Origin: Eledone cirrhosa
Taxonomy: Eukaryota
Direction of reading: 5' to 3'
Length of the DNA: 64,000 bases
NCBI GenBank assembly: GCA_964016885.1
Contig: OZ024742.1
Span: forward strand, 153,574,001-153,638,000
Below, in pieces: positions 9,228 through 61,056 of this stretch. Under the pieces are notes generated by a model that saw only the letters and a program-made list of their open reading frames with translations, was not told the origin of the DNA and did no database searches. Made by a program: the position numbers and the translations under genes. The stretch's first letter is position 1; each line of letters begins with the position of its first letter.

Positions 9228-9510
<283 letters not shown>

Positions 9511-9521
9511 TATATATATAT

Positions 9522-12500
9522 ATTGGAATAAATGCTCTGAAATAGCGATATATATGTGAATATAGACATAGAATATTCGAAAATATTCTGTATGTTTATA
9601 ATAAACATTTTGAAGACCTAATCGCTATAGAATAGAATACGTCACGTATTACAATTAGATTCTCGATAAAAGCAAGGGAAGTAATCTACGCGTTTCATTC
9701 TTATTAGAAATCTTCAGGACTACATATCCAGTGCTTTTATCGAGAATGACACAGCTAGAGACTTATAGAATACTTAGCTGTGTACAGGAACTGGTTTGAA
9801 AGAGCGGTTGCCGGTCCGGCAGAAATTAGAAATTGGAATAAATGCTCTGAAATAGCGATATATATGTGAATATAGACATAGAATATTCGAAAATATTCTG
9901 TATGTTTATAATAAACATTTTGAAGACCTAATCGCTATAGAATAGAATACGTCACGTATTACAATTAGATTCTCGATAAAAGCAAGGGAAGTAATCTACG
10001 CGTTTCATTCTTATTAGAAATCTTCAGGACTACATATACAGTGCTTTTATCGAGAATGACACAGCTAGAGACTTATAGAATACTTAGCTGTGTACAGGAA
10101 CTGGTTTGAAAGAGCGGTTGCCGGTCCGGCAGAAATTAGAAATTGGAATAAATGCTCTGAAATAGCGATATATATGTGAATATAGACATAGAATATTCGA
10201 AAATATTCTGTATGTTTATAATAAACATTTTGAAGACCTAATCGCTATAGAATAGAATACGTCACGTATTACAATTAGATTCTCGATAAAAGCAAGGGAA
10301 GTAATCTACGCGTTTCATTCTTATTAGAAATCTTCAGGACTACATATCCAGTGCTTTTATCGAGAATGACACAGCTAGAGACTTATAGAATACTTAGCTG
10401 TGTACAGGAACTGGTTTGAAAGAGCGGTTGCCGGTCCGGCAGAAATTAGAAATTGGAATAAATGCTCTGAAATAGCGATATATATGTGAATATAGACATA
10501 GAATATTCGAAAATATTCTGTATGTTTATAATAAACATTTTGAAGACCTAATCGCTATAGAATAGAATACGTCACGTATTACAATTAGATTCTCGATAAA
10601 AGCAAGGGAAGTAATCTACGCGTTTCATTCTTATTAGAAATCTTCAGGACTACATATCCAGTGCTTTTATCGAGAATGACACAGCTAGAGACTTATAGAA
10701 TACTTAGCTGTGTACAGGAACTGGTTTGAAAGAGCGGTTGCCGGTCCGGCAGAAATTAGAAATTGGAATAAATGCTCTGAAATAGCGATATATATGTGAA
10801 TATAGACATAGAATATTCGAAAATATTCTGTATGTTTATAATAAACATTTTGAAGACCTAATCGCTATAGAATAGAATACGTCACGTATTACAATTAGAT
10901 TCTCGATAAAAGCAAGGGAAGTAATCTACGCGTTTCATTCTTATTAGAAATCTTCAGGACTACATATCCAGTGCTTTTATCGAGAATGACACAGCTAGAG
11001 ACTTATAGAATACTTAGCTGTGTACAGGAACTGGTTTGAAAGAGCGGTTGCCGGTCCGGCAGAAATTAGAAATTGGAATAAATGCTCTGAAATAGCGATA
11101 TATATGTGAATATAGACATAGAATATTCGAAAATATTCTGTATGTTTATAATAAACATTTTGAAGACCTAATCGCTATAGAATAGAATACGTCACGTATT
11201 ACAATTAGATTCTCGATAAAAGCAAGGGAAGTAATCTACGCGTTTCATTCTTATTAGAAATCTTCAGGACTACATATCCAGTGCTTTTATCGAGAATGAC
11301 ACAGCTAGAGACTTATAGAATACTTAGCTGTGTACAGGAACTGGTTTGAAAGAGCGGTTGCCGGTCCGGCAGAAATTAGAAATTGGAATAAATGCTCTGA
11401 AATAGCGATATATATGTGAATATAGACATAGAATATTCGAAAATATTCTGTATGTTTATAATAAACATTTTGAAGACCTAATCGCTATAGAATAGAATAC
11501 GTCACGTATTACAATTAGATTCTCGATAAAAGCAAGGGAAGTAATCTACGCGTTTCATTCTTATTAGAAATCTTCAGGACTACATATCCAGTGCTTTTAT
11601 CGAGAATGACACAGCTAGAGACTTATAGAATACTTAGCTGTGTACAGGAACTGGTTTGAAAGAGCGGTTGCCGGTCCGGCAGAAATTAGAAATTGGAATA
11701 AATGCTCTGAAATAGCGATATATATGTGAATATAGACATAGAATATTCGAAAATATTCTGTATGTTTATAATAAACATTTTGAAGACCTAATCGCTATAG
11801 AATAGAATACGTCACGTATTACAATTAGATTCTCGATAAAAGCAAGGGAAGTAATCTACGCGTTTCATTCTTATTAGAAATCTTCAGGACTACATATACA
11901 GTGCTTTTATCGAGAATGACACAGCTAGAGACTTATAGAATACTTAGCTGTGTACAGGAACTGGTTTGAAAGAGCGGTTGCCGGTCCGGCAGAAATTAGA
12001 AATTGGAATAAATGCTCTGAAATAGCGATATATATGTGAATATAGACATAGAATATTCGAAAATATTCTGTATGTTTATAATAAACATTTTGAAGACCTA
12101 ATCGCTATAGAATAGAATACGTCACGTATTACAATTAGATTCTCGATAAAAGCAAGGGAAGTAATCTACGCGTTTCATTCTTATTAGAAATCTTCAGGAC
12201 TACATATCCAGTGCTTTTATCGAGAATGACACAGCTAGAGACTTATAGAATACTTAGCTGTGTACAGGAACTGGTTTGAAAGAGCGGTTGCCGGTCCGGC
12301 AGAAATTAGAAATTGGAATAAATGCTCTGAAATAGCGATATATATGTGAATATAGACATAGAATATTCGAAAATATTCTGTATGTTTATAATAAACATTT
12401 TGAAGACCTAATCGCTATAGAATAGAATACGTCACGTATTACAATTAGATTCTCGATAAAAGCAAGGGAAGTAATCTACGCGTTTCATTCTTATTAGAAA

Positions 12501-15500
12501 TCTTCAGGACTACATATACAGTGCTTTTATCGAGAATGACACAGCTAGAGACTTATAGAATACTTAGCTGTGTACAGGAACTGGTTTGAAAGAGCGGTTG
12601 CCGGTCCGGCAGAAATTAGAAATTGGAATAAATGCTCTGAAATAGCGATATATATGTGAATATAGACATAGAATATTCGAAAATATTCTGTATGTTTATA
12701 ATAAACATTTTGAAGACCTAATCGCTATAGAATAGAATACGTCACGTATTACAATTAGATTCTCGATAAAAGCAAGGGAAGTAATCTACGCGTTTCATTC
12801 TTATTAGAAATCTTCAGGACTACATATCCAGTGCTTTTATCGAGAATGACACAGCTAGAGACTTATAGAATACTTAGCTGTGTACAGGAACTGGTTTGAA
12901 AGAGCGGTTGCCGGTCCGGCAGAAATTAGAAATTGGAATAAATGCTCTGAAATAGCGATATATATGTGAATATAGACATAGAATATTCGAAAATATTCTG
13001 TATGTTTATAATAAACATTTTGAAGACCTAATCGCTATAGAATAGAATACGTCACGTATTACAATTAGATTCTCGATAAAAGCAAGGGAAGTAATCTACG
13101 CGTTTCATTCTTATTAGAAATCTTCAGGACTACATATCCAGTGCTTTTATCGAGAATGACACAGCTAGAGACTTATAGAATACTTAGCTGTGTACAGGAA
13201 CTGGTTTGAAAGAGCGGTTGCCGGTCCGGCAGAAATTAGAAATTGGAATAAATGCTCTGAAATAGCGATATATATGTGAATATAGACATAGAATATTCGA
13301 AAATATTCTGTATGTTTATAATAAACATTTTGAAGACCTAATCGCTATAGAATAGAATACGTCACGTATTACAATTAGATTCTCGATAAAAGCAAGGGAA
13401 GTAATCTACGCGTTTCATTCTTATTAGAAATCTTCAGGACTACATATACAGTGCTTTTATCGAGAATGACACAGCTAGAGACTTATAGAATACTTAGCTG
13501 TGTACAGGAACTGGTTTGAAAGAGCGGTTGCCGGTCCGGCAGAAATTAGAAATTGGAATAAATGCTCTGAAATAGCGATATATATGTGAATATAGACATA
13601 GAATATTCGAAAATATTCTGTATGTTTATAATAAACATTTTGAAGACCTAATCGCTATAGAATAGAATACGTCACGTATTACAATTAGATTCTCGATAAA
13701 AGCAAGGGAAGTAATCTACGCGTTTCATTCGTATTAGAAATCTTCAGGACTATATATCCAGTGCTTTTATCGAGAATGACACAGCTAGAGACTTATAGAA
13801 TACTTAGCTGTGTACAGGAACTGGTTTGAAAGAGCGGTTGCCGGTCCGGCAGAAATTAGAAATTGGAATAAATGCTCTGAAATAGCGATATATATGTGAA
13901 TATAGACATAGAATATTCGAAAATATTCTGTATGTTTATAATAAACATTTTGAAGACCTAATCGCTATAGAATAGAATACGTCACGTATTACAATTAGAT
14001 TCTCGATAAAAGCAAGGGAAGTAATCTACGCGTTTCATTCTTATTAGAAATCTTCAGGACTACATATCCAGTGCTTTTATCGAGAATGACACAGCTAGAG
14101 ACTTATAGAATACTTAGCTGTGTACAGGAACTGGTTTGAAAGAGCGGTTGCCGGTCCGGCAGAAATTAGAAATTGGAATAAATGCTCTGAAATAGCGATA
14201 TATATGTGAATATAGACATAGAATATTCGAAAATATTCTGTATGTTTATAATAAACATTTTGAAGACCTAATCGCTATAGAATAGAATACGTCACGTATT
14301 ACAATTAGATTCTCGATAAAAGCAAGGGAAGTAATCTACGCGTTTCATTCGTATTAGAAATCTTCAGGACTACATATCCAGTGCTTTTATCGAGAATGAC
14401 ACAGCTAGAGACTTATAGAATACTTAGCTGTGTACAGGAACTGGTTTGAAAGAGCGGTTGCCGGTCCGGCAGAAATTAGAAATTGGAATAAATGCTCTGA
14501 AATAGCGATATATATGTGAATATAGACATAGAATATTCGAAAATATTCTGTATGTTTATAATAAACATTTTGAAGACCTAATCGCTATAGAATAGAATAC
14601 GTCACGTATTACAATTAGATTCTCGATAAAAGCAAGGGAAGTAATCTACGCGTTTCATTCTTATTAGAAATCTTCAGGACTACATATCCAGTGCTTTTAT
14701 CGAGAATGACACAGCTAGAGACTTATAGAATACTTAGCTGTGTACAGGAACTGGTTTGAAAGAGCGGTTGCCGGTCCGGCAGAAATTAGAAATTGGAATA
14801 AATGCTCTGAAATAGCGATATATATGTGAATATAGACATAAAATATTCGAAAATATTCTGTATGTTTATAATAAACATTTTGAAGACCTAATCGCTATAG
14901 AATAGAATACGTCACGTATTACAATTAGATTCTCGATAAAAGCAAGGGAAGTAATCTACGCGTTTCATTCTTATTAGAAATCTTCAGGACTACATATCCA
15001 GTGCTTTTATCGAGAATGACACAGCTAGAGACTTATAGAATACTTAGCTGTGTACAGGAACTGGTTTGAAAGAGCGGTTGCCGGTCCGGCAGAAATTAGA
15101 AATTGGAATAAATGCTCTGAAATAGCGATATATATGTGAATATAGACATAGAATATTCGAAAATATTCTGTATGTTTATAATAAACATTTTGAAGACCTA
15201 ATCGCTATAGAATAGAATACGTCACGTATTACAATTAGATTCTCGATAAAAGCAAGGGAAGTAATCTACGCGTTTCATTCTTATTAGAAATCTTCAGGAC
15301 TACATATCCAGTGCTTTTATCGAGAATGACACAGCTAGAGACTTATAGAATACTTAGCTGTGTACAGGAACTGGTTTGAAAGAGCGGTTGCCGGTCCGGC
15401 AGAAATTAGAAATTGGAATAAATGCTCTGAAATAGCGATATATATGTGAATATAGACATAGAATATTCGAAAATATTCTGTATGTTTATAATAAACATTT

Positions 15501-17990
15501 TGAAGACCTAATCGCTATAGAATAGAATACGTCACGTATTACAATTAGATTCTCGATAAAAGCAAGGGAAGTAATCTACGCGTTTCATTCTTATTAGAAA
15601 TCTTCAGGACTACATATACAGTGCTTTTATCGAGAATGACACAGCTAGAGACTTATAGAATACTTAGCTGTGTACAGGAACTGGTTTGAAAGAGCGGTTG
15701 CCGGTCCGGCAGAAATTAGAAATTGGAATAAATGCTCTGAAATAGCGATATATATGTGAATATAGACATAGAATATTCGAAAATATTCTGTATGTTTATA
15801 ATAAACATTTTGAAGACCTAATCGCTATAGAATAGAATACGTCACGTATTACAATTAGATTCTCGATAAAAGCAAGGGAAGTAATCTACGCGTTTCATTC
15901 TTATTAGAAATCTTCAGGACTACATATCCAGTGCTTTTATCGAGAATGACACAGCTAGAGACTTATAGAATACTTAGCTGTGTACAGGAACTGGTTTGAA
16001 AGAGCGGTTGCCGGTCCGGCAGAAATTAGAAATTGGAATAAATGCTCTGAAATAGCGATATATATGTGAATATAGACATAGAATATTCGAAAATATTCTG
16101 TATGTTTATAATAAACATTTTGAAGACCTAATCGCTATAGAATAGAATACGTCACGTATTACAATTAGATTCTCGATAAAAGCAAGGGAAGTAATCTACG
16201 CGTTTCATTCTTATTAGAAATCTTCAGGACTACATATCCAGTGCTTTTATCGAGAATGACACAGCTAGAGACTTATAGAATACTTAGCTGTGTACAGGAA
16301 CTGGTTTGAAAGAGCGGTTGCCGGTCCGGCAGAAATTAGAAATTGGAATAAATGCTCTGAAATAGCGATATATATGTGAATATAGACATAGAATATTCGA
16401 AAATATTCTGTATGTTTATAATAAACATTTTGAAGACCTAATCGCTATAGAATAGAATACGTCACGTATTACAATTAGATTCTCGATAAAAGCAAGGGAA
16501 GTAATCTACGCGTTTCATTCTTATTAGAAATCTTCAGGACTACATATCCAGTGCTTTTATCGAGAATGACACAGCTAGAGACTTATAGAATACTTAGCTG
16601 TGTACAGGAACTGGTTTGAAAGAGCGGTTGCCGGTCCGGCAGGAATTAGAAATTGGAATAAATGCTCTGAAATAGCGATATATATGTGAATATAGACATA
16701 GAATATTCGAAAATATTCTGTATGTTTATAATGAACATTTTGAAGACCTAATCGCTATAGAATAGAATACGTCACGTATTACAATTAGATTCTCGATAAA
16801 AGCAAGGGAAGTAATCTACGCGTTTCATTCTTATTAGAAATCTTCAGGACTACATATCCAGTGCTTTTATCGAGAATGACACAGCTAGAGACTTATAGAA
16901 TACTTAGCTGTGTACAGGAACTGGTTTGAAAGAGCGGTTGCCGGTCCGGCAGAAATTAGAAATTGGAATAAATGCTCTGAAATAGCGATATATATGTGAA
17001 TATAGACATAGAATATTCGAAAATATTCTGTATGTTTATAATAAACATTTTGAAGACCTAATCGCTATAGAATAGAATACGTCACGTATTACAATTAGAT
17101 TCTCGATAAAAGCAAGGGAAGTAATCTACGCGTTTCATTCTTATTAGAAATCTTCAGGACTACATATCCAGTGCTTTTATCGAGAATGACACAGCTAGAG
17201 ACTTATAGAATACTTAGCTGTGTACAGGAACTGGTTTGAAAGAGCGGTTGCCGGTCCGGCAGAAATTAGAAATTGGAATAAATGCTCTGAAATAGCGATA
17301 TATATGTGAATATAGACATAGAATATTCGAAAATATTCTGTATGTTTATAATAAACATTTTGAAGACCTAATCGCTATAGAATAGAATACGTCACGTATT
17401 ACAATTAGATTCTCGATAAAAGCAAGGGAAGTAATCTACGCGTTTCATTCGTATTAGAAATCTTCAGGACTACATATCCAGTGCTTTTATCGAGAATGAC
17501 ACAGCTAGAGACTTATAGAATACTTAGCTGTGTACAGGAACTGGTTTGAAAGAGCGGTTGCCGGTCCGGCAGAAATTAGAAATTGGAATAAATGCTCTGA
17601 AATAGCGATATATATGTGAATATAGACATAGAATATTCGAAAATATTCTGTATGTTTATAATAAACATTTTGAAGACCTAATCGCTATAGAATAGAATAC
17701 GTCACGTATTACAATTAGATTCTCGATAAAAGCAAGGGAAGTAATCTACGCGTTTCATTCTTATTAGAAATCTTCAGGACTACATATCCAGTGCTTTTAT
17801 CGAGAATGACACAGCTAGAGACTTATAGAATACTTAGCTGTGTACAGGAACTGGTTTGAAAGAGCAGTTGCCGGTCCGGCAGAAATTAGAAATTGGAATA
17901 AATGCTCTGAAATAGCGATATATATGTGAATATAGACATAGAATATTCGAAAATATTCTGTATGTTTATAATAAACATTTTGAAGACCTA
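9522..17990 (-). repeat. Tandem array of 310-bp hammerhead-containing monomer, about 27.3 copies (HHR on minus strand)
   Basis: aatgctctga recurs at 9531+310n through 17901; copies nearly identical; one HHR per complete unit. Confidence 0.97.
9681..9723 (-). ncRNA. Type I hammerhead ribozyme, first of 27 minus-strand copies (period 310, last at 17741-17783)
   Basis: Minus: guaguc CUGAAGA u-uucu-aaua-agaa-u GAAA cgcg UA gauuac; 6-bp stem I, extended by the 16-bp inverted repeat 9659-9674/9732-9747. Confidence 0.8.
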
Positions 17991-19206
17991 ATTTATTCCA
18001 ATTTCTAATTTCTGCCGGACTGGCAACCGCTCTTTCAAACCAGTTCCTGTACACAGCTAAGTATTCTATAAGTCTCTAGCTGTGTCATTCTCGATAAAAG
18101 CACTGGATATGTAGTCCTGAAGATTTCTAATAAGAATGAAACGCGTAGATTACTTCCCTTGCTTTTATCGAGAATCTAATTGTAATACGTGACGTATTCT
18201 ATTCTATAGCGATTAGGTCTTCAAAATGTTTATTATAAACATACAGAATATTTTCGAATATTCTATGTCTATATTCACATATATATCGCTATTTCAGAGC
18301 ATTTATTCCAATTTCTAATTTCTGCCGGACCGGCAACCGCTCTTTCAAACCAGTTCCTGTACACAGCTAAGTATTCTATAAGTCTCTAGCTGTGTCATTC
18401 TCGATAAAAGCACTGGATATGTAGTCCTGAAGATTTCTAATAAGAATGAAACGCGTAGATTACTTCCCTTGCTTTTATCGAGAATCTAATTGTAATACGT
18501 GACGTATTCTATTCTATAGCGATTAGGTCTTCAAAATGTTTATTATAAACATACAGAATATTTTCGAATATTCTATGTCTATATTCACATATATATCGCT
18601 ATTTCAGAGCATTTATTCCAATTTCTAATTTCTGCCGGACCGGCAACCGCTCTTTCAAACCAGTTCCTGTACACAGCTAAGTATTCTATAAGTCTCTAGC
18701 TGTGTCATTCTCGATAAAAGCACTGGATATGTAGTCCTGAAGATTTCTAATAAGAATGAAACGCGTAGATTACTTCCCTTGCTTTTATCGAGAATCTAAT
18801 TGTAATACGTGACGTATTCTATTCTATAGCGATTAGGTCTTCAAAATGTTTATTATAAACATACAGAATATTTTCGAATATTCTATGTCTATATTCACAT
18901 ATATATCGCTATTTCAGAGCATTTATTCCAATTTCTAATTTCTGCCGGACCGGCAACCGCTCTTTCAAACCAGTTCCTGTACACAGCTAAGTATTCTATA
19001 AGTCTCTAGCTGTGTCATTCTCGATAAAAGCACTGGATATGTAGTCCTGAAGATTTCTAATAAGAATGAAACGCGTAGATTACTTCCCTTGCTTTTATCG
19101 AGAATCTAATTGTAATACGTGACTTATTCTATTCTATAGCGATTAGGTCTTCAAAATGTTTATTATAAACATACAGAATATTTTCGAATATTCTATGTCT
19201 ATATTC

Positions 19207-19212
<6 letters not shown>
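17991..19212 (+). repeat. Inverted arm of the 310-bp array, about 3.9 copies (HHR on plus strand)
   Basis: Reverse complement of the monomer starting at 17991, 18301, 18611 and 18921; ends in (TA)n at attcacatatatat. Confidence 0.97.
18111..18153 (+). ncRNA. Type I hammerhead ribozyme (also 18421-18463, 18731-18773, 19041-19083)
   Basis: gtagtc CTGAAGA tttctaataagaat GAAA cgcg TA gattac; predicted cleavage after GUA at 18147. Confidence 0.8.
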
Positions 19213-19237
<25 letters not shown>

Positions 19238-19416
19238 AGTAAGTAAGTAAAAAATTTTTTAAAAATTTTTTTAAAAGATATCTTCTTATTTTACGTCTTT
19301 TATATTATTGTTCTGCACCCTCCTGCATTGAACCACCTAGGTACTATGACATAACCTGTGTATTTGCTGGCATGGACGTACATCTGTGCGCCTATGTTAG
19401 TTGATATATTAAATTA

Positions 19417-19452
<36 letters not shown>

Positions 19453-19454
<2 letters not shown>

Positions 19455-20256
19455 GTTTCTGAATTTGTTTAGCAAGATTCTTTATCTGAAAACGTGTGTT
19501 GAAACCGATATTGTTATACTTTGGGAGGGTCATGTTGCCAATAAGAAACACACGCACCAGTTATTTCACTTCAATTTATTATAAATTAAATTTTAAATTT
19601 CCGGTTGGTTGGTTGGTTCCACAGCCAAACGATTGTTCATATATTGTCAACGTTCTCTCGTCACACATTCTGTGACCTCTTCAGTGACTGGGGATTTTTT
19701 TCTTTGTTTTTGTGCCCCTCTCCTTTGTTCTGTCCTACACCATCTTGTTTTTGTGTGTGGTGTGTGCTTAGTTTGCGCATGTGTTACATCCGGGTGTCTG
19801 TGTGTGTTTATATTTGTTTATTTATTTGTTTATTTACATGTTACTGGTTGGTTGTTTGTTCTATGTGTGTGTGTGTTTTCATTTTGTCCTTAATTGTATG
19901 TTGTGATGTTGCTGTTCCATTCATGTTTTTTATTTAACATGTAAATAAACAAATAATTAAATAAATATAAACACTCAGACACCCGGATGTAACACATGCG
20001 CGCACTAAGCACACATCACACACAAAAACAAGATAGCGTAGGACAGAACAAAGAAGAGGCACAAACACAAATAAAATAATCCTCAATCACTGAAGAGGTC
20101 ACAGAATGTGTGATGAAAGAACTTTGACAATATATGAACAATCGTCTGGCTGTGGAACCAACCAACCGGAAAGTTATAAATTTAATTTATAATAAATTGA
20201 AGTGAAAGCAACTGGTGCGTGTGTTTCTTATTGGCAACATGACCCTCCCACAGTAT

Positions 20257-20262
<6 letters not shown>
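19453..20262. mobile_element. Head-to-head pair of PLE family B pseudo-LTR fragments, each with an HHR-like motif
   Basis: 19453-19930 is the reverse complement of the family B 3' end; 19935-20262 is forward; (TA)n on both sides; CTGAAGA...GAAA at 20090-20118. Confidence 0.85.
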
Positions 20263-20300
<38 letters not shown>

Positions 20301-20407
20301 ATATATTCACACACATAATATATATATATATATATATATATTGTCCATATCGAGCCCTCCTCGGATTTTAGTCTTTACAATTATTATTATTACTATATAT
20401 AGTAATA

Positions 20408-20596
20408 GGCGGTTGATTGGCAGTATCGGTAGAGAGTCGGACGTCATGCTTTGCAGCATAGTTACGTCCCTCTACGGTCTAAATTCAAATACCGCCGAGG
20501 TTCACTTTGCCTTTCATCCTTGTGGGGTCGATAAAATAAAGTACCAGTAATACACTGGAATAATTGCTGGCCTTGTGCCAAAAAGTAGAAACAATT
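20408..20596 (+). mobile_element. SINE family A, full length, with TSD
   Basis: A box TGGCAGTATCGG, B-box-like AATTCAAATACC; flanked by caattattatta(tta)ctatatata duplicates. Confidence 0.85.
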
Positions 20597-20635
20597 ATTA
20601 TTACTATATATATAAATATATAAATATATATATAT

Positions 20636-21469
20636 ATAAAGAATTCATATCTAGTAACATATATATATACATACATATGCATATCGATGCTAGCAAATAT
20701 ATAGGTTTTGTCTTAATAACATTGTGGTTCAATGCATGGGGTTGCAGAACAATAATATGAGAGACGTAAAATAAGAAAATTATAAAATTAACTTACTTAC
20801 TAAAATATCACTTCCAACTAATTATTTTCTGGAATGGAGTAAATATATTTTCCGTAGAAGATACAGATAAGCATTCTGTCGTTAGGAAAGTCTATTCTCG
20901 GATAAATTTCCAGGCAAAGCGAGGACTCTGGAAACTTACTAAAAAATAATTCAGTGGATAGGAAATAGCGAAGCGTGGACTGAATTCCTAGCCATTGAAA
21001 AAATCTCAGCCTCTGCGTCTGTGGCAAATTCAAAAAGAATCAAACACGTGACATCGAGGTCAATCAGTGGAAAGTGGTTCGCTATTAAGACAGCGGCCTG
21101 CCTACTACCATAGCAGCAGTCATGGCCAATATTGCTCGACAAATAATTTGGAGATAATTATAAAGAATTCATATCTAGTAACATATATATACATACATAT
21201 GCATATCGATGCTAGCAAATGTATAGGTTTTGTCTTAATAACATTGTTGTTCAATGCATGGGGTTGCAGAACAATAATATGAGAGACGTAAAATAAGAAA
21301 ATTATAAAATTAACTTACTAAAATATCACTTCCAACTAATTAGTTTCTGGAATGGAGTAAATATATTTTCCGTAGAAGATATAGAGAAGCATTCCGTCGT
21401 CAGGAAAGTCTATTCTCGTATAAATTTCCAGGCAAAGCGAGGACTCTGGAAACTTACTAAAAAATAATT
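20636..21469. repeat. Partial tandem duplication: about 315-bp direct repeat, period about 524
   Basis: 20636-20950 is near-identical to 21160-21469; part matches 19237-19345 in reverse. Confidence 0.9.
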
Positions 21470-21484
21470 GTTGATACTACTTTC

Positions 21485-21612
21485 CAACTGAGTATAGTGG
21501 AGCAATGTGAAATTAAGTGTTTTGCTCAAGAACAGAACACCCAGCCAATGAATCGAACCCACGACATTATGATCATAAGTCCGACACACTTACCATTAGG
21601 TTACATGCCTCC
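21485..21612 (-). mobile_element. CORE-type tRNA SINE fragment
   Basis: aagtgttttgctcaagaacagaac (reverse CORE-like) plus gaatcgaaccc (reverse B box). Confidence 0.6.
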
Positions 21613-21731
21613 ACACACATAGACAGGCAGACGCACACATGCACAAACACACTCCCACAAATATATCTATATCTATATCTATCTATCTATTTATCTATGT
21701 ACATACAATCATATATATATATATATATATA

Positions 21732-22620
21732 TATTGTTATACTTCGGGAGGGTCATGTTTCCAATAAGAAACACACGCACCAGCTGCCTTCACTTCAATT
21801 TTTCATAAATTTTATAAATTTTATCAATATATATTTTATAAATTTCCGGTTGGTTGGTTGGTTACACAACCGGATGGTTAATATATTGTCAAAGTTCTTT
21901 CGTCGCACATTATGTGATCTCTTCAGTGACTGGGGATTATTTCTTTGTGTTGTGCCTCTCCTTTGTTCTGTCCCACGCCATTTGGTTTTTTGTGTGTGTT
22001 TTGTGCTCATTTTGCGCATGTGTTACATCCGACTGTCTGTGTGTGTTTCTATTTGTTTATTTATTTGTTTATTTACTTGTTACTAGTTAATTGTTTGTTC
22101 TATGTGTGTGTGTTTTCATTTTGTCCTTAATTATAAGTCGTGATTTTGCTATTTCATTCATGTTTTCTATTTAATTTTGGCTGGAGTTCATTTATGTTTA
22201 TTGCCTCTGTGATTTGTCTAAGCATTGTGTATTTCTGTGTGTAGATTCCATTTTTATATCTAAGTTGCCCTTATGTTCTATTTTAGCATGTTAGTGGAGT
22301 ATTGATGAGACTTTTCTATCTTGGAGTTCTCGCCAGTGTTGATTTAATCGTTCTCCTATACTACGAGCTGTCTCACCTATGTAGATTATATTCTTATTTC
22401 TACATCGTCCCTCAGTACATCTTATGCTATTTACTGTTTCTAGCTTTACAGTTAATATGAAGGCATAGCTTACAGATTATTCATTTCTAATCTATACAGG
22501 GAGGTCTTTGAAAATGTTATGTATTATTAATTAGCGTTTTTATGGAGGTACCTGGTCTTTCCACTATCTTAATATTTAGTTTATCTAGGGCTCTTCTAAA
22601 TTTGTAAGCTCGTCCACCTA
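21732..22620 (-). mobile_element. PLE family B 3' fragment: decayed GIY-YIG plus pseudo-LTR with HHR
   Basis: Homologous in reverse to about 39360-40270; YIGETARSIGER remnant; HHR at about 21888-21930; followed by an inverted terminus at 22620-22730. Confidence 0.85.
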
Positions 22621-23342
22621 AATTGAAGTGAAAGCATCTAGTGAAAGCATCTTATTTGCAACATGACCCCGCAGAGTATAACAATATCTGTTTCAACACA
22701 CATTTTCAGATAAAGAATCTTGCGAAACAATTTATGTATGTGTGTGTGTGTGTGTGTGTGTCTGTATATATATCTATCTTTCCAAATCTAGAAAGTAATT
22801 TTTTTTTCTGTAATGATGTTTAATGTTGTAATATATTATATACTTATATTCTTAATTCTACATTCTGATCGTATAAACACGTCTTGATGTCAATCAAAAC
22901 TGATGTGTTATTCTTAATCTAATATTGATTTATTTTTTATGAAACCTTCATATAGTCCATCTTATCTATGGAATAAGTTTTCATCATTTCTGTAACCTTT
23001 TGCTTTTGAGACATAATTGTCTCATGAAATCGTACATTTGAAACCAGCACACTAAATCAAATATTACGAAGTCACATATAGGTTAGCATTATACCAAAAT
23101 GTTGGCAATTTCTCTCAATATCCCCTCCCCCTCTTTTTCTATATTTCCCTTACTCTCTCATTCTCACTTACAACCCCCCTCTCTCTCTCTCTCTAATTTC
23201 GTTTGTTCATGAATCAGAAGGAAAATGATAAACCAAAAGGTTTCTTACAGATTTGTAAAAGTTACTTTCAAAATTTAGAGTTATTTCAGTTAACTTATGT
23301 CATTATGATTGTTACTGAAGTGGCTTCTGCTATATCTCAGTG

Positions 23343-24811: not shown

Positions 24812-26154
24812 TACGGGATAACAGGTTATCGTTATAGGCAGTCCACTTAGATGTAGTCCAGTTAGAGTACTCCGTGTAGTGGTTGGTATTGACGTGTGGT
24901 TTGTTTCACTCAACATGACGTTTCCATAGTGATGCTGCGAGTTCGCGGTCAATTCTAAGTAGTTTATACTTGGAGTAATAATAATTCAAGAAAGAAGAGT
25001 GCCATGGTTTGCTATACAATAAGGGCTTTATTCACATTGTTGACAATTGTTTATTTGATCTGCTAGGTGTAGAGTTCGCTACTCGCTTGATGTTGCGTCA
25101 ATCGATCTCCAATACTTTGTTTATAATCAGTCGTTTTCATCAGAGCACGCGAGAGTGAGGAAGATACACAAGGCATGGCTTTTATAGAGGAGTGGTATTA
25201 AACAAGAACAATAATATCAATAATAAAATAACTAGATACTGAATAGTTAAAATAATAACATATATATAAGTAAGAAATAGGGTATAATGATGAATCTAGC
25301 ATATTACACGAACTGATATGATACAGATGTATGAAATTGACATCTGAAAACTGCTATAGAGTACATTAGATGTAGTGTTTAGGTGGTGAGGAGATAACTG
25401 ATAAAATGTACTTGGAGTCAGGATTGATTAGGTATATGCGTTTACTGTAGGGCTGAAAGCACGCTAGCAAGAAACTGGAGATTTATTTATTGTTTGACAG
25501 ATAGGCATTTTCGTTGTACTAATTTAGTGAGAATGATAGGGTGGGTGCAAAGAAATATATAGTTTATATGTGGTGTTAAGTGAAGTTGTAGATTCGTTAT
25601 TTAAGTGGCCTATTCTAAAAGTTGTGATTATTAGATCGAATCAAACATTAATAGAGACAATAAAAGTAATAAAATATAAAATATGAAAGGTAGATAGAGA
25701 GAACATGATGAATAATATTAGGGATACATTGAGATGATCATAATAATAATAAGAGAAAAATAAGAATTCAAGGAGTGTAGGAGTGATAAGATAATGTACT
25801 TAGAATTAAGTTCATCTGTTAGAGATCACGAGTGCTAATGTGAGATACGTAGATATAATTGTTTGGTCCGAAGGAGTAAAAAACAGCAAAGAAGGGATTG
25901 ATTTATGGGCTGACAAAATAGTTGTAGACATTACTGCCGCATCCTAATGGTATAGATTTAGGGAGGTTAGAAGGTGTTTATAGAAGATTGTGGTTCTGTA
26001 GTGGGCTGTGTGAGAATGTGGATTTCATATGTTAAATGCTAAGTAATTTTCCCTTAATATATATATATATATATTTATATATAGCTACACGTATATATAT
26101 ATATATATATTTATTTATAGCTACACGTATATGTATATATATATATATATGTAT

Positions 26155-26927
26155 ATTGGTAAACGGAATAGGAAATGCTGTCAAATTGTTCACAGTGAAA
26201 AATAGTTTAATTAGGAATAAGTGAGAAATAGTAATAGTATTGGTTAGTATTGACCTTTGGTTTTTACCGGTTGCGCATTTCTAATGCTTTTCAAAAATAA
26301 TTTTGAGATAGAGCGTCCGTGATGTTTGCTCTGATCTACCTTTTGATGTCTATAGATATAGACGTGCCGACACACACACACATACATAAACGCACACATG
26401 CATTGCACACTGAAGGGCACATACATATTTGTGCACAGGTATTCCAATACGCAAGGCCTAAAGAATTCCCCTTGCAGTACGTACAATCTGGACACACTCC
26501 AGATACATTTTGTGCATAGGTATACACTTTCTGGACACACTCCAGATACATATGTACAATTTGTGCACAGGTATACAGTTTGTGCACAGGAATACCATTT
26601 CTGCACACACTCCAGACACATATTTGTGCACAGGTATTCCAATACGGCAAGGCCCAATGAATCCCCCTTGCAGTACGTACAATCTTGACACATTCACACA
26701 CACCTTGGTATTATGCCAATACTATATATCATTTCACACCTTTTATTATTAAGGTTTTTGATGTTCTATTGAGAGAATCGATTTTACTGAAAATATCGAA
26801 TAATATACACCATTTTACCAGTAATAAATACTGGTCCACCTCCACACACACACACACACATTCTCTCACACTCACACACACACATACACACACACACATA
26901 CACACGCGTACATTAACATACAAAGAG

Positions 26928-26967
<40 letters not shown>

Positions 26968-27625
26968 CCTTCTCCGTATAAGACAAGAGCTGAAAAAATA
27001 TCTTTTAACATGTTAAAATATCCCCCACACACTAACAGACAGATTCCTACTGACCATCCCTCTACCACGAATTACTCTACTACACACACACACACACACT
27101 TGTTTTAATAGACATTTGAACTGTCAACAGGCTGCGATTCACACACACATCCCTGCTGACCATTATCACAACAACGAACCCCTCTACTACTACTACACAC
27201 ACACACACACATATTTGTTGTGAAAGACTTATGTCTCAGTCCTACATTTGGCGCAAAATCAATTTTTTACATTCACATGACCTCTACCGACCAATCAAAA
27301 TTGTTTTGACCACAATAATTTTTGCAACACGAATTGGCGCAAAACTTATTTTAATACCGCTGGAGCCACTTTTTTAACATAAAAAAGGTAGAATTCCCCA
27401 AACTAATCAGATCAGAGCAAACATCACGGACGCTCTATCTCAGAATTATTATTGAAAAGCATTAGAAATGCGCAACCGGTAAAAAACAAAACTCAATACT
27501 AACCAATACTATTACTAATTCTCATTTATTCCTAATTAAACTATTTTTCACTGTGAATAATTTGTCTGCATTTTCTATTCCGTTTACCAATATATCATAA
27601 CTTGTGTGTTACACATCTATTCTTT

Positions 27626-27662
<37 letters not shown>

Positions 27663-29089
27663 CAATAAAAACACCTGCTAATTACGGCTACAAGAACTAA
27701 AGGACACACTCATAGGCAGGGACTACCCTGCATCACTAATTGACAATGGAATCCAATGTGCCCTAAAACTCACTACCCAGGACACCCTAAAGTAAATCAA
27801 CTGAAACTAAAAGCTCTTCCATACATCTCCACACACAATCCCCTCAACAATGAGGCCTTTGACACCATCCTCCAGAACATCCCTGTGTTGAAAAAGAACC
27901 ATAGAATGAACCAAATCCTACGAACACACGATATCATAAGGAGTAAAAGACAATCTAAGTCAATGAAAAACATCCTAACACATGCTAAAGTACTGCCAAC
28001 CACAACAACGAAACCCACAGTAAAAAAATGCAATAGACCCAACTGTGGCATTTGCATCAACCTAATAGAGGATTCGGAATTCTATTTCAAAGAAGAACAA
28101 CGCTTTATAGTAAAACACAATTTCACATATGCATCAGAAAATCTAATATATGTATTAACTTGCTCAGGTTGTCGAGAACAATACATAGGCCAGACCAAAC
28201 ACAGCCTCCGCCAAATATGACTGTCCATAGATCCCAAATTAAAATACGGGGATACAGGAAAATACCACTGAGTGATCACATTGATACCTGTGCCGCCCAA
28301 AATCATCCCAACTTCAGAATCTTTCCCATCTACAAATTTAAAGATAATGCCAACCACACCCAGCGCATCAGCAAGGAATCTTACTTTATTAACAAGTACG
28401 GACCCCGTCTAAACACTTCTCCCTAAGACGAACCCACAACATACACACGTCAACATACATACCTACATCAGCACACATCTCTACCCACATATAAACACAA
28501 TGACATACGTAAACACACATGTTCTATGGTGCAACACAAATATACACAAATTTGCATACCTTTTGATGTCTATAGGTATAAACGTGCCGAAACACACACA
28601 TACATAAACGCACACATGCATTGCACACTGAGGGACATATACATTTTTTTGCACAGGTATTCCAATACGGCAAATCCTAATGAATTCCCCTTGCAGTACG
28701 TGCAATCTGGACACACTCCAGATACATATTTGTACACAGGTATACAATTTCTGGACACACTCCAGATGCATATTTGTGCACGGGTATTCCAATACGGCAA
28801 GGCCTAAGGGATCCCCCTTTCAGTACGTACAATCTGGGGACACACATACACTAACACACACCTTGGTATTTTGCCAATACTATATATCATTTCACACCTT
28901 TTATTATTAAGGTTTTTGATGTTCTATTGAGAGAATCGATTTTACTGAAAATATCGAATAATGTACACCATTTTACCATGGAAGAAAATACTGGTCCACC
29001 CACACACACACACACACACACATTCTCACACACACACACACACATATATACGCACATACATACACACGCGTACATTAACATACAAAGAA

Positions 29090-29123
<34 letters not shown>

Positions 29124-29756
29124 TTCTCCGTATAAGACAAGAGCTGAAAAATATCTTTTAACATGTTAAAATATCCGCCACTCACGTACAGACACATTCC
29201 TACTGACCATCCCTCTACCACGAATTACTCTGCTACACACACACACACTTGTCTTAATAGGCATTTGAACTGTCAACAGGCTGCGGTTCGCACACACATC
29301 CTTGCTAACCATTATCACAACAACAAACACTTTACTACTACTACACACACACACACACACATATTGGTTGTGAAAGAGTCATTTCTCAGTCAGCCGAGAC
29401 AAACCTACATTTGGCGCAAAATAAATTTTTTACATTCACATGACCTCTACAGACCAATCAAAATTGTTTTGACCACAAGAATTTTTGCAACACGAATTGA
29501 CGCAAAACCTATTTTAATACCGCTGGAGCCACTTTTTTAACATAAAAACAGGTAGAATTCCCCAAACTAATCAGATCAGAGCAAACATCACGGGCGCTCT
29601 ATCTCAAAATTATTTTTGAAAAGCATTAGAAATGCGCAACCGGTAAAACTCAAAACCAAAACTGAATACTAACCAATACAATTACTAATTCTCACTTATT
29701 CCTAATTAAACTATTTTTCACTGTGAACAATTTGTCAGCATTTTCTATTCCGTTTA

Positions 29757-29760
<4 letters not shown>
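26155..29760 (+). mobile_element. PLE family C insertion: short inverted terminus, upstream tail copy, (TA)n, GIY-YIG fragment, long 3' tail
   Basis: 26155-26335 is the reverse complement of about 29573-29760; 26337-27592 repeats as 28557-29760; (TA)n at both outer ends. Confidence 0.8.
27660..28426 (+). pseudogene. Frameshifted PLE linker + GIY-YIG endonuclease (Neptune/Poseidon-like)
   Basis: KCNRPNCGIC...ENLIYVLTCSGCREQYIGQTKHSLRQ / MTVHRSQI...SDH...KESYFINKYGPRLN. Confidence 0.85.
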
Positions 29761-29824
<64 letters not shown>

Positions 29825-29830
29825 GCTACA

Positions 29831-29873
<43 letters not shown>

Positions 29874-30914: not shown

Positions 30915-33373
30915 CTATATATAGGGCTTAAAGTTTTGGAAGGAATGTCTGAGGCGGTGCTGGCAAGTTGCAAACACCTCAGATTTTTTGTTAAGTAGGT
31001 TACGGTTGGAGAAGATAATATTGTGTGTCTCTAGTATACAGAGGTTACAGAATTTGTTAGGTGGTTTGTACGAGGTCGCGCTGCCTATCACTTCCCATTT
31101 GAGTGAGTATGGTTTATTTTTAGATTTTAGATAGTGTATGTAGCTAGAAAGTGAGGTGGAGTTGGCTAGGCTGTGCTTTTTGAACGAGTGGATGTGCGAG
31201 TTATATCTGATTTTGAAGCAGTTAGAAGTGGAGCCTACATAGGTTTCTGAAGAGTTATTAGTCGTGACTGTGCATGAGTATATGACATCCTTGGTTAGGC
31301 ATTTTTTATCTAAAGGGCAGGTTCTATTAGCTCTACAGTTACAATTATTCTGTGCGTTAGTCCGCTGGTTATAATGCAATGCGGAAGTCTGTGTGGTGGA
31401 TATAGGATTTTGGGTGTTCGGGTTGACAACCCTGGTGTTATTACTTATACTAGTGTTATTTCTATTGTTACTGCCGTTGCTATTGTTGCTTGCTACAGTG
31501 GTATTTAGAGGGTTTGCATCCCGTTGTGATTTTGTTTGTTGGAAGTAAGAACTAATTTTACTATTATTGCTGCTAGCTATGTGGTATGCTAAGTTAGGCG
31601 TCGTAGAGTAAGAGATTTTAATGGTGTTTTTGTTTAAGAGGTTGTGGTACTTGTGTCCTAGAGGGAAGTTTTTATCTAGTAGTGAGAAGAAAGCCCTAGG
31701 TATGTTGGTGGAGACATTTAGGTTGAAAGGAGGGTTGAAAAATGTATTATTTCTTCTTCTATTTTTGCTTTTAGTGTTTGGTGTGTTGCTTCCTCCTAAG
31801 GCCTCACAGTAGTTTCCATGGTAATGGTTACTTCCGGTGGCACCCTCCGCTTTGGTGTACTTGTGGTTGCTATTCCTATTATTAGATTTCCTCATGGACA
31901 TGTTGTGCGAGATGATGTTGTAGTTATGTGTTTTCTTAGGTAGGAACTCAATTTCTATATTATGGCCGGAGCTAGCTAATGCTTGATTGTAATATTGTGA
32001 GTTTTTGCTAAATATGTTTGCGTCATAGGACAGACTAGAGATTCTATTGGACACCCCCTTAGAGATAGAGTTTAATATTGATCTAGGGTGATTAGACTTG
32101 GTATCTACGTAAATAAGTTTCTCATTAGGCTTATGGAAAGGTGTATATATTTTTGAGTCTAGGTATAGTGTGGCGTCTAGGAAGTTTACATTTTTAGTGT
32201 TTTTGTCCATGGTGATACTAAGGTTAAAGTTTTTGAATGTCTTATGCAGTTGTTTTCTAGTTCTTTCTATATTAAATTTTTTATATTCTATGAGTAGAAG
32301 TGCATCATCGCGGTACAAACCACCGTTGAGGTAAGGGAGGTCTTTATGGATTTCATTGAGGAGGTATAGGCCGACCAAATCAGTGACCTGCGCCGAGTCA
32401 CTAGATCCCATGGTTATGTCGAAGTTGTTGTGCGTATCCTTGCGTGTCCATAGTTGGTCCTCGAAGGTGATTATGGTTTTACGGGCCGCAAGGATGACAT
32501 CAACCTGGGCTCTAGTCAGGTCGCTATTGGCCATGGCCATGATAAGTGCCTTATTTAATAGGATAGGGGAAATAGAGGTGTAGTATGAATTGATATCAAA
32601 TTGAATACATTTTTTGTTCTTATTATTCTTGATATCCTTAAACCATTCAATTACTTCACCCGTATTTCCCCATTGTTTAAGGTGTATCCTGTGTTTAATT
32701 TGTGGGATGATTTTATCCAAAATCTTCTTGCTGATAATACCAATGTCGGACTTGGAAGGGCAGATAAGTCTTATCGTGGGGTTGCTGATGAAGTTCTCCT
32801 TATGGTCCTTCAGAGAGAATCTAGGGGGTTCGGAGTGAAAGGTTGTGTATGCCTCTGTAGTCCTAGTTTAGACACTATATTATAACCCTCTACATTAATA
32901 TCTTCTAAGTTTTTCAAGGTGGTTTTTTTGTAGCTTTTATGTAGTTCATTATATATAAACTTTCTATAAGTAATATAATCTAGGCTGTATATGTTATTAG
33001 TTTTATCTGCGTGTACAATAATTTTATTACTAGTTTTGAATCCACTAATAGAAGTGTTAAGTTTGTTTAAGAAGGTGTTGCTTCTAATATGGTGCTTATT
33101 GTATTTAATGTTCTTAACTAGTTTAACTAGGTCATTTTCAAAGGAGTTAAGTAGAGTGTTATGAGGGGGGCTTTTAAAGGTTTTAAAGCCGAAGGAGTCA
33201 AAATTGTTAGTATTATTCAAGTTGTTAGATTTGTTTCTATCATAATGGAATGTCCTCCATCTCACTCTATTGATAAATGAATTTACACTGTTGATCAGCA
33301 ATTTCTCATATGTATTCCTGGATGGTATTGGTATGTTCTTGGTTGACATGGAGAGTTGGTCTTTGATTAGCAT
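30915..33373 (-). CDS. Penelope-like RT + GIY-YIG polyprotein (about 820 aa) split by one frameshift at the G5 run 32824-32828
   Basis: ADKTNN, LKDHK, QFDINSYY, MGSSDSAQVTDLVG, LYRDD, CNCx5C linker, VIY...YVGST...RYNSH, CNLC; ORFs 32810-33373 and 30915-32720 join if one base is added. Confidence 0.9.
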
Positions 33374-33622
33374 ATTGGCAATATTATATGTCAGCTCAAC
33401 GATATGGAGCAGTTAATAGTATTAGTTATACTATTTATGGTTATGTAAACACAAAACCTTAAGCAGTTGTAAGTATTTTACACACACCCTAAATAGTGGT
33501 AGGCAGTAATGTATTACTACCTTATTACCAGTAAGTTAAGTAGCTCAATGTAAAAACATCACATGATTTACAGAGCAGTTATATGAAATATAAGAATCAA
33601 AGAACTGTTCAAAACATTATTG

Positions 33623-35332: not shown

Positions 35333-36660
35333 TTCGTTTCTGAATTTGTTTAGCAAGATTCTTTATCTGAAATCGTGTGTTGAAACCGATATTGTTATAC
35401 TCTGGGAGGGTCATGTTGCCAATAAGAAACACATGCACCAGCTGTTTCACTTCAATTTATAATATATTTATAAATTTACAAATTTATAAATTTATAAATT
35501 TATGGTTGGTTGGTTGGTTCCACAACCAGATAGTTGTTTATATATAGTCATAGTCCTTTCGTCACACACTCTGTGACCTCTTCAGTGACTGGGGATTCCT
35601 TTCTTTGTTTCTGTGCCTCTCCTTTGTTCTGTCCTACGCCATTTTGTTTCTGTGTGTGTGTCGTGTGCTCAGTCTGCGCATGCGCCACATCCGGGTGTCT
35701 GTGTGTGTTTATGTTCATTTATCTATTTGTTTATTTCTTTATTTATTTACATGTATATTGGTTGGTTGTTTGTTCTATGTGTGTTGTGTGTGTTTTCATT
35801 TTGTCCTTAATTGTAAGTTGTGATGTTGCTGTTCCACTCATATTTTCTATTTTATTTTGGTTGTATTTCTTTTATGTTTATTGCCTTTGTAATTTGTCTA
35901 AATATTGCATCTTTTCTGTGTGTAGATTCTATTTTTAATTCTATGTTCTCTAATTTACCCTTGTGTTCTATCTTAGCATGTTGGTAGAGTACAGTTGATT
36001 CTTTATTATCTTGAAGCTCTCGCCAGTGTTCATTTATCCGTTCCCCTATACTACGAGCTGTCTCACCTATGTACACTATATTTTTGTTTCTACATTGTCC
36101 TTCAGTACATCTTATGCTATACACTACATTTCTAGTTTTACAGTTAATATGGGGGCTTATTTTACAGGTTATACATTTCTTATCTATACATGAGGGTCGT
36201 TGAAAATGGTATGTCTTGCTAGTAAGTGTTTTTACGGAGGTACCTGGTCTTTCTACTATCTTAATATTGAGTTTATGTTTATTTAGGGCCCTTCTAAATG
36301 TGTAGGCTAGTTCGCCTCTAGGGTTGTATCGATGAACATTACACTCTGGTATTTATTGCTATCATACCATGAGTTTATTCTGTTAGCCTTGTTCCTAGTT
36401 CTTTCTATTCTATTCCAAAATGTGCTCCTATACAAGGGGCAGGTCCCATTTATGTCATTATTTACCATTGTTTCCCATTTGGTTCTGGCTCCTCTATACA
36501 CTCTGATTCTGTCTCTCTGATTGTAGCCAGAGAACTGCATACGGTGGATGAAGTGTTGCATGTGTCTCTCTAGTTCTTCGGGGTTGCACATGCGGGACAC
36601 ATTTCTCATCACCCGTACCAAATCCGCAATCAGTATGTTGATTTTGGTATGGTCCGAAAT
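35333..36660 (-). mobile_element. PLE family B, inverted 3' arm (RT thumb, GIY-YIG, pseudo-LTR)
   Basis: Reverse complement of about 39020-40270; ORFs 36307-36738 and 35852-36124. Confidence 0.9.
35546..35590 (-). ncRNA. Hammerhead ribozyme in family B pseudo-LTR (best-preserved copy)
   Basis: aguca CUGAAGA g-gucaca-gagug-ugugac GAAA ggac UA ugacu. Confidence 0.7.
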
Positions 36661-36679
36661 GGCCGAAATGGCCGAAATT

Positions 36680-39600: not shown

Positions 39601-40270
39601 TATAGTGTACATAGGGGAGACAGCTCGTAGTGTAGGGGAACGGATAAACGAACACTGGCGAGAGCTTCAAGATAGTAAAGAATCATCTGTACTCTACCAA
39701 CATGCTAAAATAGAACATAAGGGTAAATTAGTGAACATAGAATTAAAAATAGAATCTACACACAGAAAAGACGCAATGTTTAGACAAATCACAGAAGCAA
39801 TAAACATAAAAGAATTACAACCAAAATTAAATAGAAAATATGAGTGGAACAGCAACATCATAACTTACAATTAAGGACAAAATGAAAACACACACGGACA
39901 TAGAACAAACAACCAACCGGTAACATGTAAATAAACAAATAAATAAACGAATATAAACACACACATACACCCGGATGTGGTGCATGCGCAGACTGGGCAC
40001 ACAACACACACACAGAAACAAAATGGCGTAGGACAGAACAAAGGAGAGGCACACAAACAAAGAAAAGAATCCCCAGTCACTGAAGAGGTCGCATAATGTG
40101 TGACGAAATAACTTTGACAATATATAAACAACTATCTGGTTGTGGAACCAACCAGCCAACCAGAAATTTATAAATTCCTAAATTTATAAATTTATTATAA
40201 TAAATTGAAGTGAAAGCAACTGGTGCGTGTGTTTCTTATTGGCATCATGACCCTCCGAAAGTATAACAAT
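36680..40270 (+). mobile_element. PLE family B, near full length, disabled
   Basis: Coding remnant followed by pseudo-LTR with HHR at 40076-40118, ending at ataacaat + (TA)n. Confidence 0.9.
36700..39874 (+). pseudogene. Penelope-like RT + GIY-YIG ORF with several stops and frameshifts
   Basis: PTDKSG, LYGLRKDHK, TRPVCG, SMDVVSLYPSI, AGDIANLFM, YSRYVDD, NCKTRNVVYSIRC...YIGETARSVGERINEH; Asn-rich insert near the N-terminus. Confidence 0.9.
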
Positions 40271-40422
40271 ATATATATATATATATATATTGTTATACTT
40301 AGGGTGGGTCATATTGTTGTAATAATATTGCCAGAATTAATAACAGAACACACTCACTGTTTGGTTGGTTTTCGCTTCTGTATCTTTTATATCACTTAAT
40401 TTATTCTGTCCTCAATGCTTAG

Positions 40423-41164
<742 letters not shown>

Positions 41165-49700: not shown

Positions 49701-50057
49701 TAGAGTATTGTTGAGAAGTGAAGGCGAAATAGAAGAGTAGTAGCTGGCAATATCAAATTGAATAAATTGTTGTTTGTTTTTCTTATTCAGGTTGTTGAAC
49801 TAGCCAATTACTTCAGATGTACCAAACCATAAATTTAAGTTAGAAACAGAGCAATTAGAACGAACCAGTGGCTTTACTAACAACCCCGAGATCTGATTTA
49901 GAGGAGAAGATTAGTCTAACAGGTAGTTCCGTTCGAAAATTACTTTTATGATCCTTGAGATTTATCCTCGGAGTTCTTGGGAGGAATGGTTCGGTCTTCT
50001 TTTCAATGCCAAGTTTTGACATAATCTCAGAAGCTTCAAAGTTTAAAGATTCCAAAT
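46782..50057 (-). mobile_element. PLE family E, 5'-truncated inverted arm (RT, GIY-YIG, long 3' UTR, HHR)
   Basis: ORFs with LKDHK, IYRDDG, CNCPVKIKC and CNLCLSEK; reverse complement of about 50900-54105 plus an extension matching 50060-50165. Confidence 0.9.
46909..46977 (-). ncRNA. Type I hammerhead ribozyme, family E pseudo-LTR
   Basis: Exact reverse complement of 54001-54069. Confidence 0.85.
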
Positions 50058-50243
50058 TGTCTTTTGATCTTATATTATTTATACTCCAGTCCTACAAACT
50101 GTAGACTGCTACTTATCAGATATTTGCATTGCTTTATTGTACAACAATAACACTCACCTCCTACATTAACTTGCTCCTTAACGGTTGTGCGCTAACCCTC
50201 ATATCGGATACCTTTTGATGGTCTTTCATTTTTCTTCTACAAC

Positions 50244-54070: not shown

Positions 54071-54100
54071 CTTGTAACTCTTTTAACCATCTTTTGATCT

Positions 54101-54183
<83 letters not shown>

Positions 54184-59230: not shown

Positions 59231-61056
<1,826 letters not shown>

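Follow-up and report, generated by a model that had tools for sequence, protein, structure and literature searches.

A predicted retrozyme family of Eledone cirrhosa bears the insertion footprint of Penelope-like elements

The locus described here raises the question of how a tandem array comes to lie back to back with an inverted copy of itself, with TA microsatellite at both outer ends. In the window, by which we mean the whole 64,000-nt stretch of E. cirrhosa DNA that was analysed (contig OZ024742.1, positions 153,574,001 to 153,638,000), a 310-bp tandem array and its own reverse complement form two back-to-back arms (9522-17992 and 17991-19216). The features of the locus are as follows, with unit positions numbered from the predicted hammerhead cleavage site.

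9506..9521, no strand: (AT)8 target microsatellite on the left side, abutting the left arm
9522..17992, minus strand: left (tailed) arm with 27.3 copies of the 310-bp hammerhead unit in tandem, unit positions 65 to 165
9522..9547, minus strand: tail of 26 nt, unit positions 140-165, only at the outer end of the left arm
17991..17992, no strand: 5'-to-5' junction, 2-nt AT microhomology between unit positions 65 and 154, not a palindrome centre
17991..19216, plus strand: right (untailed) arm with 3.95 units running from position 154 to 139, of the left-arm haplotype
18111..18153, plus strand: example of the type I hammerhead motif, identified by sequence, one per unit
18148..18457, plus strand: a complete monomer between successive cleavage sites, structured RNA (predicted fold)
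19209..19234, no strand: (AT)13 on the right side, with unit positions 132-139 making up its first 8 nt

The original prediction had described a 5'-to-5' flip of polarity at 17990/17991 with both outer 3' ends in (TA)n, and both points hold: the arms meet at 17991-17992, the ribozyme sense is directed outward from this junction in each of them, the left arm ends at the (AT)8, and the right arm passes into (AT)13 through the unit's own ATATATAT. The first 8 nt of (AT)13 are the likely primer-annealing site. Ahead of the (AT)8, at about 9340-9505, a copy of a different Penelope-like family has its 3' end, whose likeness to the end of the element at 35.3-40.3 kb was judged by eye. The left flank of the array has a single occurrence in the assembly, with no empty allele seen; inside (TA)n a target-site duplication would not stand out.

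The 310-bp unit and its neighbours in the window

Each unit contains a motif that reads, in order, as stem I, CUGAAGA, stem II, GAAA, a short palindromic stem III and UA, and in the example motif cleavage is predicted between 18147 and 18148. The monomer has a predicted folding energy of -72.5 kcal/mol (z -4.56), and equal stability was reached in 0 of 100 shuffles. A search of the window against Rfam gave no match at the gathering threshold, and HH9 matched a neighbouring unit weakly (17 bits, E 0.36, against a gathering score of 52). The ribozyme core carries no fixed variants, the changes being located in N7, the stems and the loop. When four sister copies were included in a consensus fold, covariation was low (3 of 47 pairs, covariation term +0.92), and because of this we claim no structure for the start sites discussed below. 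Six loci (L046, L051, L067, L069, L073 and L105) have haplotypes with a 1-nt insertion right after the predicted cleavage/ligation site, fixed in both arms.

Within the arrays there are no ORFs of at least 200 aa besides TA-run frames at the array ends, and the window arrays, being non-coding, lack the RT plus GIY-YIG ORF of an autonomous Penelope-like element (PLE). Metazoan non-LTR retrozymes consist of tandem non-coding units of 170-400 nt with a type I hammerhead, according to the portions of PMC7229834 and 10.64898/2026.07.22.740005 available to us; the units described here are of 310 bp, within that range, and a type I hammerhead motif can be read in every one of them. The axolotl HHR_Amex2, as far as its published description was accessible, is also alike in the U-U at the base of stem II and the two-pair stem III. 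Expression and cleavage have been demonstrated for metazoan non-LTR retrozymes; from its DNA sequence, we would class the present family as a young, non-coding, putative non-LTR retrozyme with a predicted type I hammerhead.

Two further elements of the window also have inverted arms.

35389-40272: ORF-bearing PLE-like element, inverted arms 35389-36659 and 39021-40272, hammerhead-like motifs, one-sided extension of ~58 nt before (TA)n
46863-54114: broken PLE-like element, inverted arms 46863-50061 and 50898-54114, 3.2 kb, 92% alike

A weak GIY-YIG match in the first (E 4e-4, below the cut-off) and a weak pairwise likeness to an RT plus GIY-YIG ORF suggest PLE identity for these two ORF-bearing elements of the window. 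Ends related to the first element are found at 19400-22700 and in the array's left flank; the second has a minimal hammerhead motif per arm, is extended on one side by ~80 nt before (TA)n, and causes a mirror GC skew in the window. A PLE-like RT ORF of 650 aa without a Pfam match lies at 30918-33412 (minus strand), beside a direct-plus-inverted repeat element between TA runs (26057-29870), and a small two-armed repeat of ~511-bp period at 59484-61054, in TA runs, has hammerhead-like motifs at 59841, 60184 and 60695. An older sister family (40691-41040 in the window; L040, L086, L094, L157, L159, L172 and L176) is ~75% identical to the 310-bp unit over unit positions 59-235, is two-armed with the same ends (139 and about 165-167) and has a variant hammerhead-like motif; it may share a helper with the 310-bp family.

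Outer ends and junctions across insertions

Insertions of EN+ PLEs are marked by an adjacent inverted 5'-truncated copy in head-to-head arrangement, a tail of 30-40 bp that is often at one end, and a bias for (TA)n, as described in the available parts of PMC8557442 (Craig 2021) and PMC3846280 (Arkhipova 2013). A footprint of this type had been proposed for the window locus, to be refuted if other loci had random polarity and non-TA flanks, and the family was accordingly traced with exact patterns. The exact 37-nt ribozyme pattern has 1,578 matches in the 3.0-Gb genome (one haplotype only), and patterns in which the unit runs into TA have 1,034 matches at position 165 and 1,245 at 139; reversed control patterns have 0. 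The window locus is one among about a thousand similar insertions in TA microsatellites. Outward-facing end pairs within 20 kb (81 and 100 ends in the range listed) comprise 54 that mix 139 with 165, and 0 of either 139/139 or 165/165.

The first 220 Mb of contig C1 supplied 92 stretches, which together with the window gave a sample of 95 insertions, 81 of them two-armed, 11 single-armed, one with an 11-nt second arm and two cut by N runs; of the ends that had no partner, 13 of 25 tailed and 22 of 44 untailed ones lie outside this sample. An inverted 5'-truncated copy is thus adjacent at the 5' end in 81 of 95 cases, and every one of the two-armed insertions runs minus then plus, 5'-to-5', with none joined 3'-to-3', a regularity that far exceeds chance. 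In all 81, one outer end lies at 128-139 and the other at 157-172, and 64 of the 81 tailed arms stop exactly at 165 (range 157-172). The short tail is one-sided throughout (81/81) and mostly 26 nt, slightly below the 30-40 bp quoted for EN+ PLEs. While the 54 pairs were chosen by their end patterns, the same rule of ends and polarity is followed by all 10 two-armed insertions that were selected solely for their ribozyme core, and it holds for loci chosen by one end only (10 and 12 two-armed among 12 and 20). At one locus (L046:303-5036) there is a nested re-inversion, in which the junction 65/29 appears twice around a short extra inverted piece.

Given this fixed polarity and these TA flanks, neither of which is random among the other loci, the proposed PLE-type footprint is borne out. 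The ends themselves need a correction, in that both lie in TA as predicted but are not free: one is always near 139 and the other near 165, the latter being the known Penelope tail.

The 162 outer ends run into at least 8 nt of perfect TA in 146 cases, into shorter or imperfect TA in 14, into N in one and into a nested junction in one; the (TA)n target was partly built into the search patterns and is also found at the core-selected loci. In 51 of 79 last units ending at 139, T replaces the unit's C131, and since this change is fixed in only three loci, it was likely supplied by the target primer. We infer that (TA)n acted as a primer by annealing over the unit's AUAUAUAU, the bases there being contributed by the target. 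The earlier proposal that both target strands primed reverse transcription agrees with the fixed position of both outer ends and with the base derived from the target, and two-strand priming of the Penelope type is well supported, such that we hold it with high confidence.

The inner ends, by comparison with the fixed outer ones, are uniformly spread (KS p 0.10, 69 insertions). Fifty of the 69 junctions are flush or overlapping and 19 have inserted bases, and the overlap, estimated from BLAST ends, has a mean of 2.5 nt vs 0.77 nt simulated. Arm lengths fit an exponential with a mean of 1.6 kb (KS p 0.10), the lengths of the two sides are uncorrelated (rho 0.19, p 0.12), and 58 of 69 insertions have more than one unit in both arms. 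Ends and lengths fit two independent cDNAs with fixed starts and random stops that were then joined.

In L1 twin priming, as attributed to Ostertag and Kazazian, both target strands reportedly prime one RNA to give a 5'-to-5' junction with microhomology, and the second primer is said to anneal at a chance internal site beside the first cDNA stop. The insertions described here are alike in both-strand priming and in their 5'-to-5' microhomology junctions and differ in that the second site is fixed; it lies within 15 nt of the first cDNA stop in 7/69 and 10/69, with 6.9 expected. The 12-nt overlap in the window between the left outer end (165) and the right inner end (154), considered as a sign of L1-style twin priming, is due to chance.

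Alternatively, the first cDNA might have folded back or primed itself to give the second arm, or the DNA might have been inverted and converted later. For rotifer Penelope, palindromic junctions led to a proposal of self-priming (PMC3846280, in the part available), whereas the junctions here are non-palindromic: their 5' positions fall within 10 nt of each other in 4 of 69, with 4.7 expected by chance, and the arms stop at different fixed positions. Because junction positions are random and not palindromic, both this origin and a fold-back read or assembly artefact are disfavoured. The latter might be suspected since no displayed read crosses the window junction at 17991, and none of the listed contig pieces of run X1 crosses 17991-17992; the X1 contigs, which may derive from the assembly's own sample, do contain 11 other left-arm/right-arm joints of this kind. 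Moreover, the window junction is asymmetric, its flanks differ and the left one is unique, a single rule applies across 81 loci, and coding PLE-like elements in the window have the same one-sided extension, so that we give an artefact hardly any credence.

Haplotypes and the template of the arms

Haplotypes were counted in 79 loci with 793 units, the duplicated, error-rich L038 pair being excluded, and positions 296-310 of L043 and the last 14 nt of terminal units were dropped from the variant analysis. The 79 loci contain 31 haplotypes, and no locus has a variant that is fixed in one arm yet missing from the other, whereas two random templates would make about 9 of 79 concordant. Fifteen private variants, each confined to a single locus, are fixed in both arms (14 loci). 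Unit-specific variants are not mirrored between arms in 69 of the 74 testable cases, and between-arm conversion therefore does not explain the shared haplotype. The same count tells against fold-back, which would itself put one haplotype in both arms; with the junction data, fold-back or inversion is largely refuted, and we consider it very improbable.

The original prediction had named a circular or multimeric RNA as the template. A shared template is upheld by the presence of one haplotype in both arms, the choice between circle and multimer is an indirect one, and 3 of 79 loci are multimer-like. At 0.135 singletons per unit, sampling of monomers predicts ~11 loci with a new fixed variant, and 14 were seen. 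Linear copying of equally mutated donors predicts ~31 in-register shared variants, and these were seen at three loci (p 1.6e-10); were the donors four times less mutated, the in-register deficit would be only marginal (p 0.049). Because in-register sharing is rare and new fixed variants match monomer sampling, the usual template appears to pass through one monomer, and one monomer, most simply a circle, is in our judgement the probable, if far from certain, usual template per insertion.

The three loci with unit-specific variants common to both arms in the same register are L043, L062 and L122. L043 (2000-8401) switches haplotype after the same two full units in both arms, which points either to a chimeric linear template or to a simultaneous template switch, and L062 and L122 each have a single-unit variant in register in both arms. 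These 3 of 79 loci look as if copied from a linear multimer, and a monomer circle offers no simple account of them. At L100, A276G is present in 7/7 units of one arm and only in the last-copied 2/6 of the other, out of register, a pattern that a linear template does not give.

On the RNA strand, fixed variants comprise 10 A>G to 3 T>C and singletons 8 to 17 (Fisher p 0.016, post hoc), and A276G is fixed in six loci on five backgrounds; RNA editing is a possible cause of the A>G lean among fixed variants. Sequencing runs also contain this repeat. Twenty runs under 18 organism labels contain at least half of the sampled words from window positions 17700-18400, and runs X4 and X10 have one closed 340-nt contig each (310 plus overlap), of a single haplotype and without flanks; circular RNA, cross-contamination and a perfect tandem array would all look alike in this respect.

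The original prediction had further suggested that a satellite could be seeded in one event. In the 27-copy arm of the window, G269T recurs in 5/27 units and A296C in 3/27; the long arms of L033, L055, L064 and L110 likewise have unit-specific variants that recur, and such variants occur in 0 of four arms of 14-15 units. Two variants recur at offset 7 in L055 and several at offset 27 in L064, and no strict higher-order period was found by eye in the window's long arm. From these patterns the long arms appear to have undergone DNA-level duplication or conversion, and the recurrence of G269T and A296C suggests that the window arm was probably reshaped at the DNA level after insertion. Arms of over 27 units number 2 among 160 other arms, with 0.6 expected; arm length alone does not require expansion, and only the variant pattern indicates turnover. 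The suggestion thus stands for the seed, and not for the whole of the long arms, which include the window's and show signs of later turnover; the window's 27 copies need not all stem from the first event.

Such block duplications, like the in-register sharing at L043, L062 and L122, would suit a reading in which two-strand Penelope priming takes place on an uncleaved linear multimer from a homogeneous donor array, length and homogeneity being regained by DNA-level amplification. It would be in keeping, too, with unprocessed RNA as the dominant substrate in vitro (PMC11167929) and with 8 of 9 Xenopus retrozyme dimers being uncleaved in vitro (10.64898/2026.07.22.740005), both as reported in the text available. 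However, the 79 loci would have to stem from at least 31 donors, each homogenised on its own, and both the shortfall of in-register variants and the L100 pattern speak against this reading, which we regard as unlikely. Still less probable is that a monomer circle was amplified as RNA into a linear multimer, which was then copied by Penelope from both DNA ends. This would yield a monomer bottleneck together with occasional in-register variants (L062, L122), and RNA-RNA replication has been raised for retrozymes (PMC7229834 and PMC9695139, in the parts available), but an extra step is required, and minus-strand RNA and a polymerase are hypothetical here.

Proposed mechanism and relation to known systems

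We return to direct copying of a monomer, and propose, with somewhat better than even confidence, that the locus is a single insertion whose two arms were made by a Penelope-type enzyme copying the same RNA, probably a 310-nt circle, from both cut strands. The proposal builds on the observed polarity, the two fixed outer ends used one each, the TA targets, the random inner ends and the one haplotype per insertion. The enzyme would cut a (TA)n microsatellite on both strands, with each end priming copying, and an RT-endonuclease dimer would bind the RNA near positions 130-170. One DNA end would anneal to the unit's AUAUAUAU and begin at or before 139, the other would begin near 165, and each cDNA would circle the template several times and fall off at random, the two cDNA ends then being joined through microhomology. 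Uncleaved linear multimers probably served as the template in a minority of cases, and unequal exchange or conversion probably reshuffled long arms later. In its full form, double rolling-circle reverse transcription, with a Penelope RT dimer and one 310-nt circular RNA giving two opposite multi-kilobase arrays from one fixed start site per cut strand, we give the proposal an even chance.

The single-armed insertions (11/95) count against a two-armed model. A small screen of 30 GIY-YIG loci and 13 tail-motif loci found no autonomous partner: 1 of the 30 has just a sister-family fragment, and the 13 are sister-family or retrozyme copies with no linked ORF. The best biochemical comparison is the anole PLE protein, which cuts and extends both strands, has two adjacent internal starts bounding the tail and is predicted to be a dimer (PMC11167929, Frangieh 2024, as far as available). 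In vitro it used unprocessed RNA, and its choice of start site did not differ between the strands (same source, same part); both points count against our explanation.

With EN+ PLEs, as described in the accessible text on them, the family shares the inverted 5'-truncated copy, head-to-head arrangement, one-sided tail, (TA)n bias and, on our reading, two adjacent start sites that bound the tail as well as cutting and extension of both strands; it differs in having no ORF, multi-copy arms on both sides and a tail of about 26 nt, and in the strict pairing of one tailed with one untailed arm (81/81), which is not stated in the available parts of PMC8557442, PMC3846280 and PMC11167929. The MRC1-type PLE derivatives of Chlamys are likewise non-coding passengers with multicopy head-to-tail insertions (PMC8557442, part available); the Chlamys elements are mostly without hammerheads according to the same text, whereas the present family has a hammerhead motif, and no autonomous relative of it was identified.

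For retrozymes, conversion of circles into tandem cDNA by PLEs was proposed in 2020 (Cervera and de la Pena, PMC7229834), and a 2026 preprint (Li, Clavereau and Pollet, 10.64898/2026.07.22.740005) ties retrozymes to PLE pLTRs and favours local DNA amplification, each in the portion available. The main text of both, so far as accessible, makes no mention of inverted arms, fixed ends, a tail or (TA)n targets, and that of the preprint none of orientation; inverted arms, fixed ends, tail, TA targets and per-insertion haplotype are what is measured here. In the literature searched, with subscription journals outside its scope and some sources available in part, we found no report of a Penelope footprint on retrozyme arrays. 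The footprint itself is known; new are a retrozyme family that bears it and the measured evidence that each insertion had a single template and each DNA strand a start site of its own.

These results bear on how animal retrozymes return to DNA, in that about a thousand young insertions have a PLE footprint with one haplotype each, and they offer a way in which a tandem satellite could arise without DNA slippage as its starting point. The 81/81 pairing predicts that the two known PLE start sites are used one per DNA strand, which bears on the inverted arm and tail, and the 310-nt unit is a small RNA substrate for PLE biochemistry. Double rolling-circle copying, if true, would account for the inverted arm and the one-sided tail of Penelope insertions at large, a satellite would be born from an RNA circle in one step, and RNA edits (A-to-G) would become fixed in the genome.
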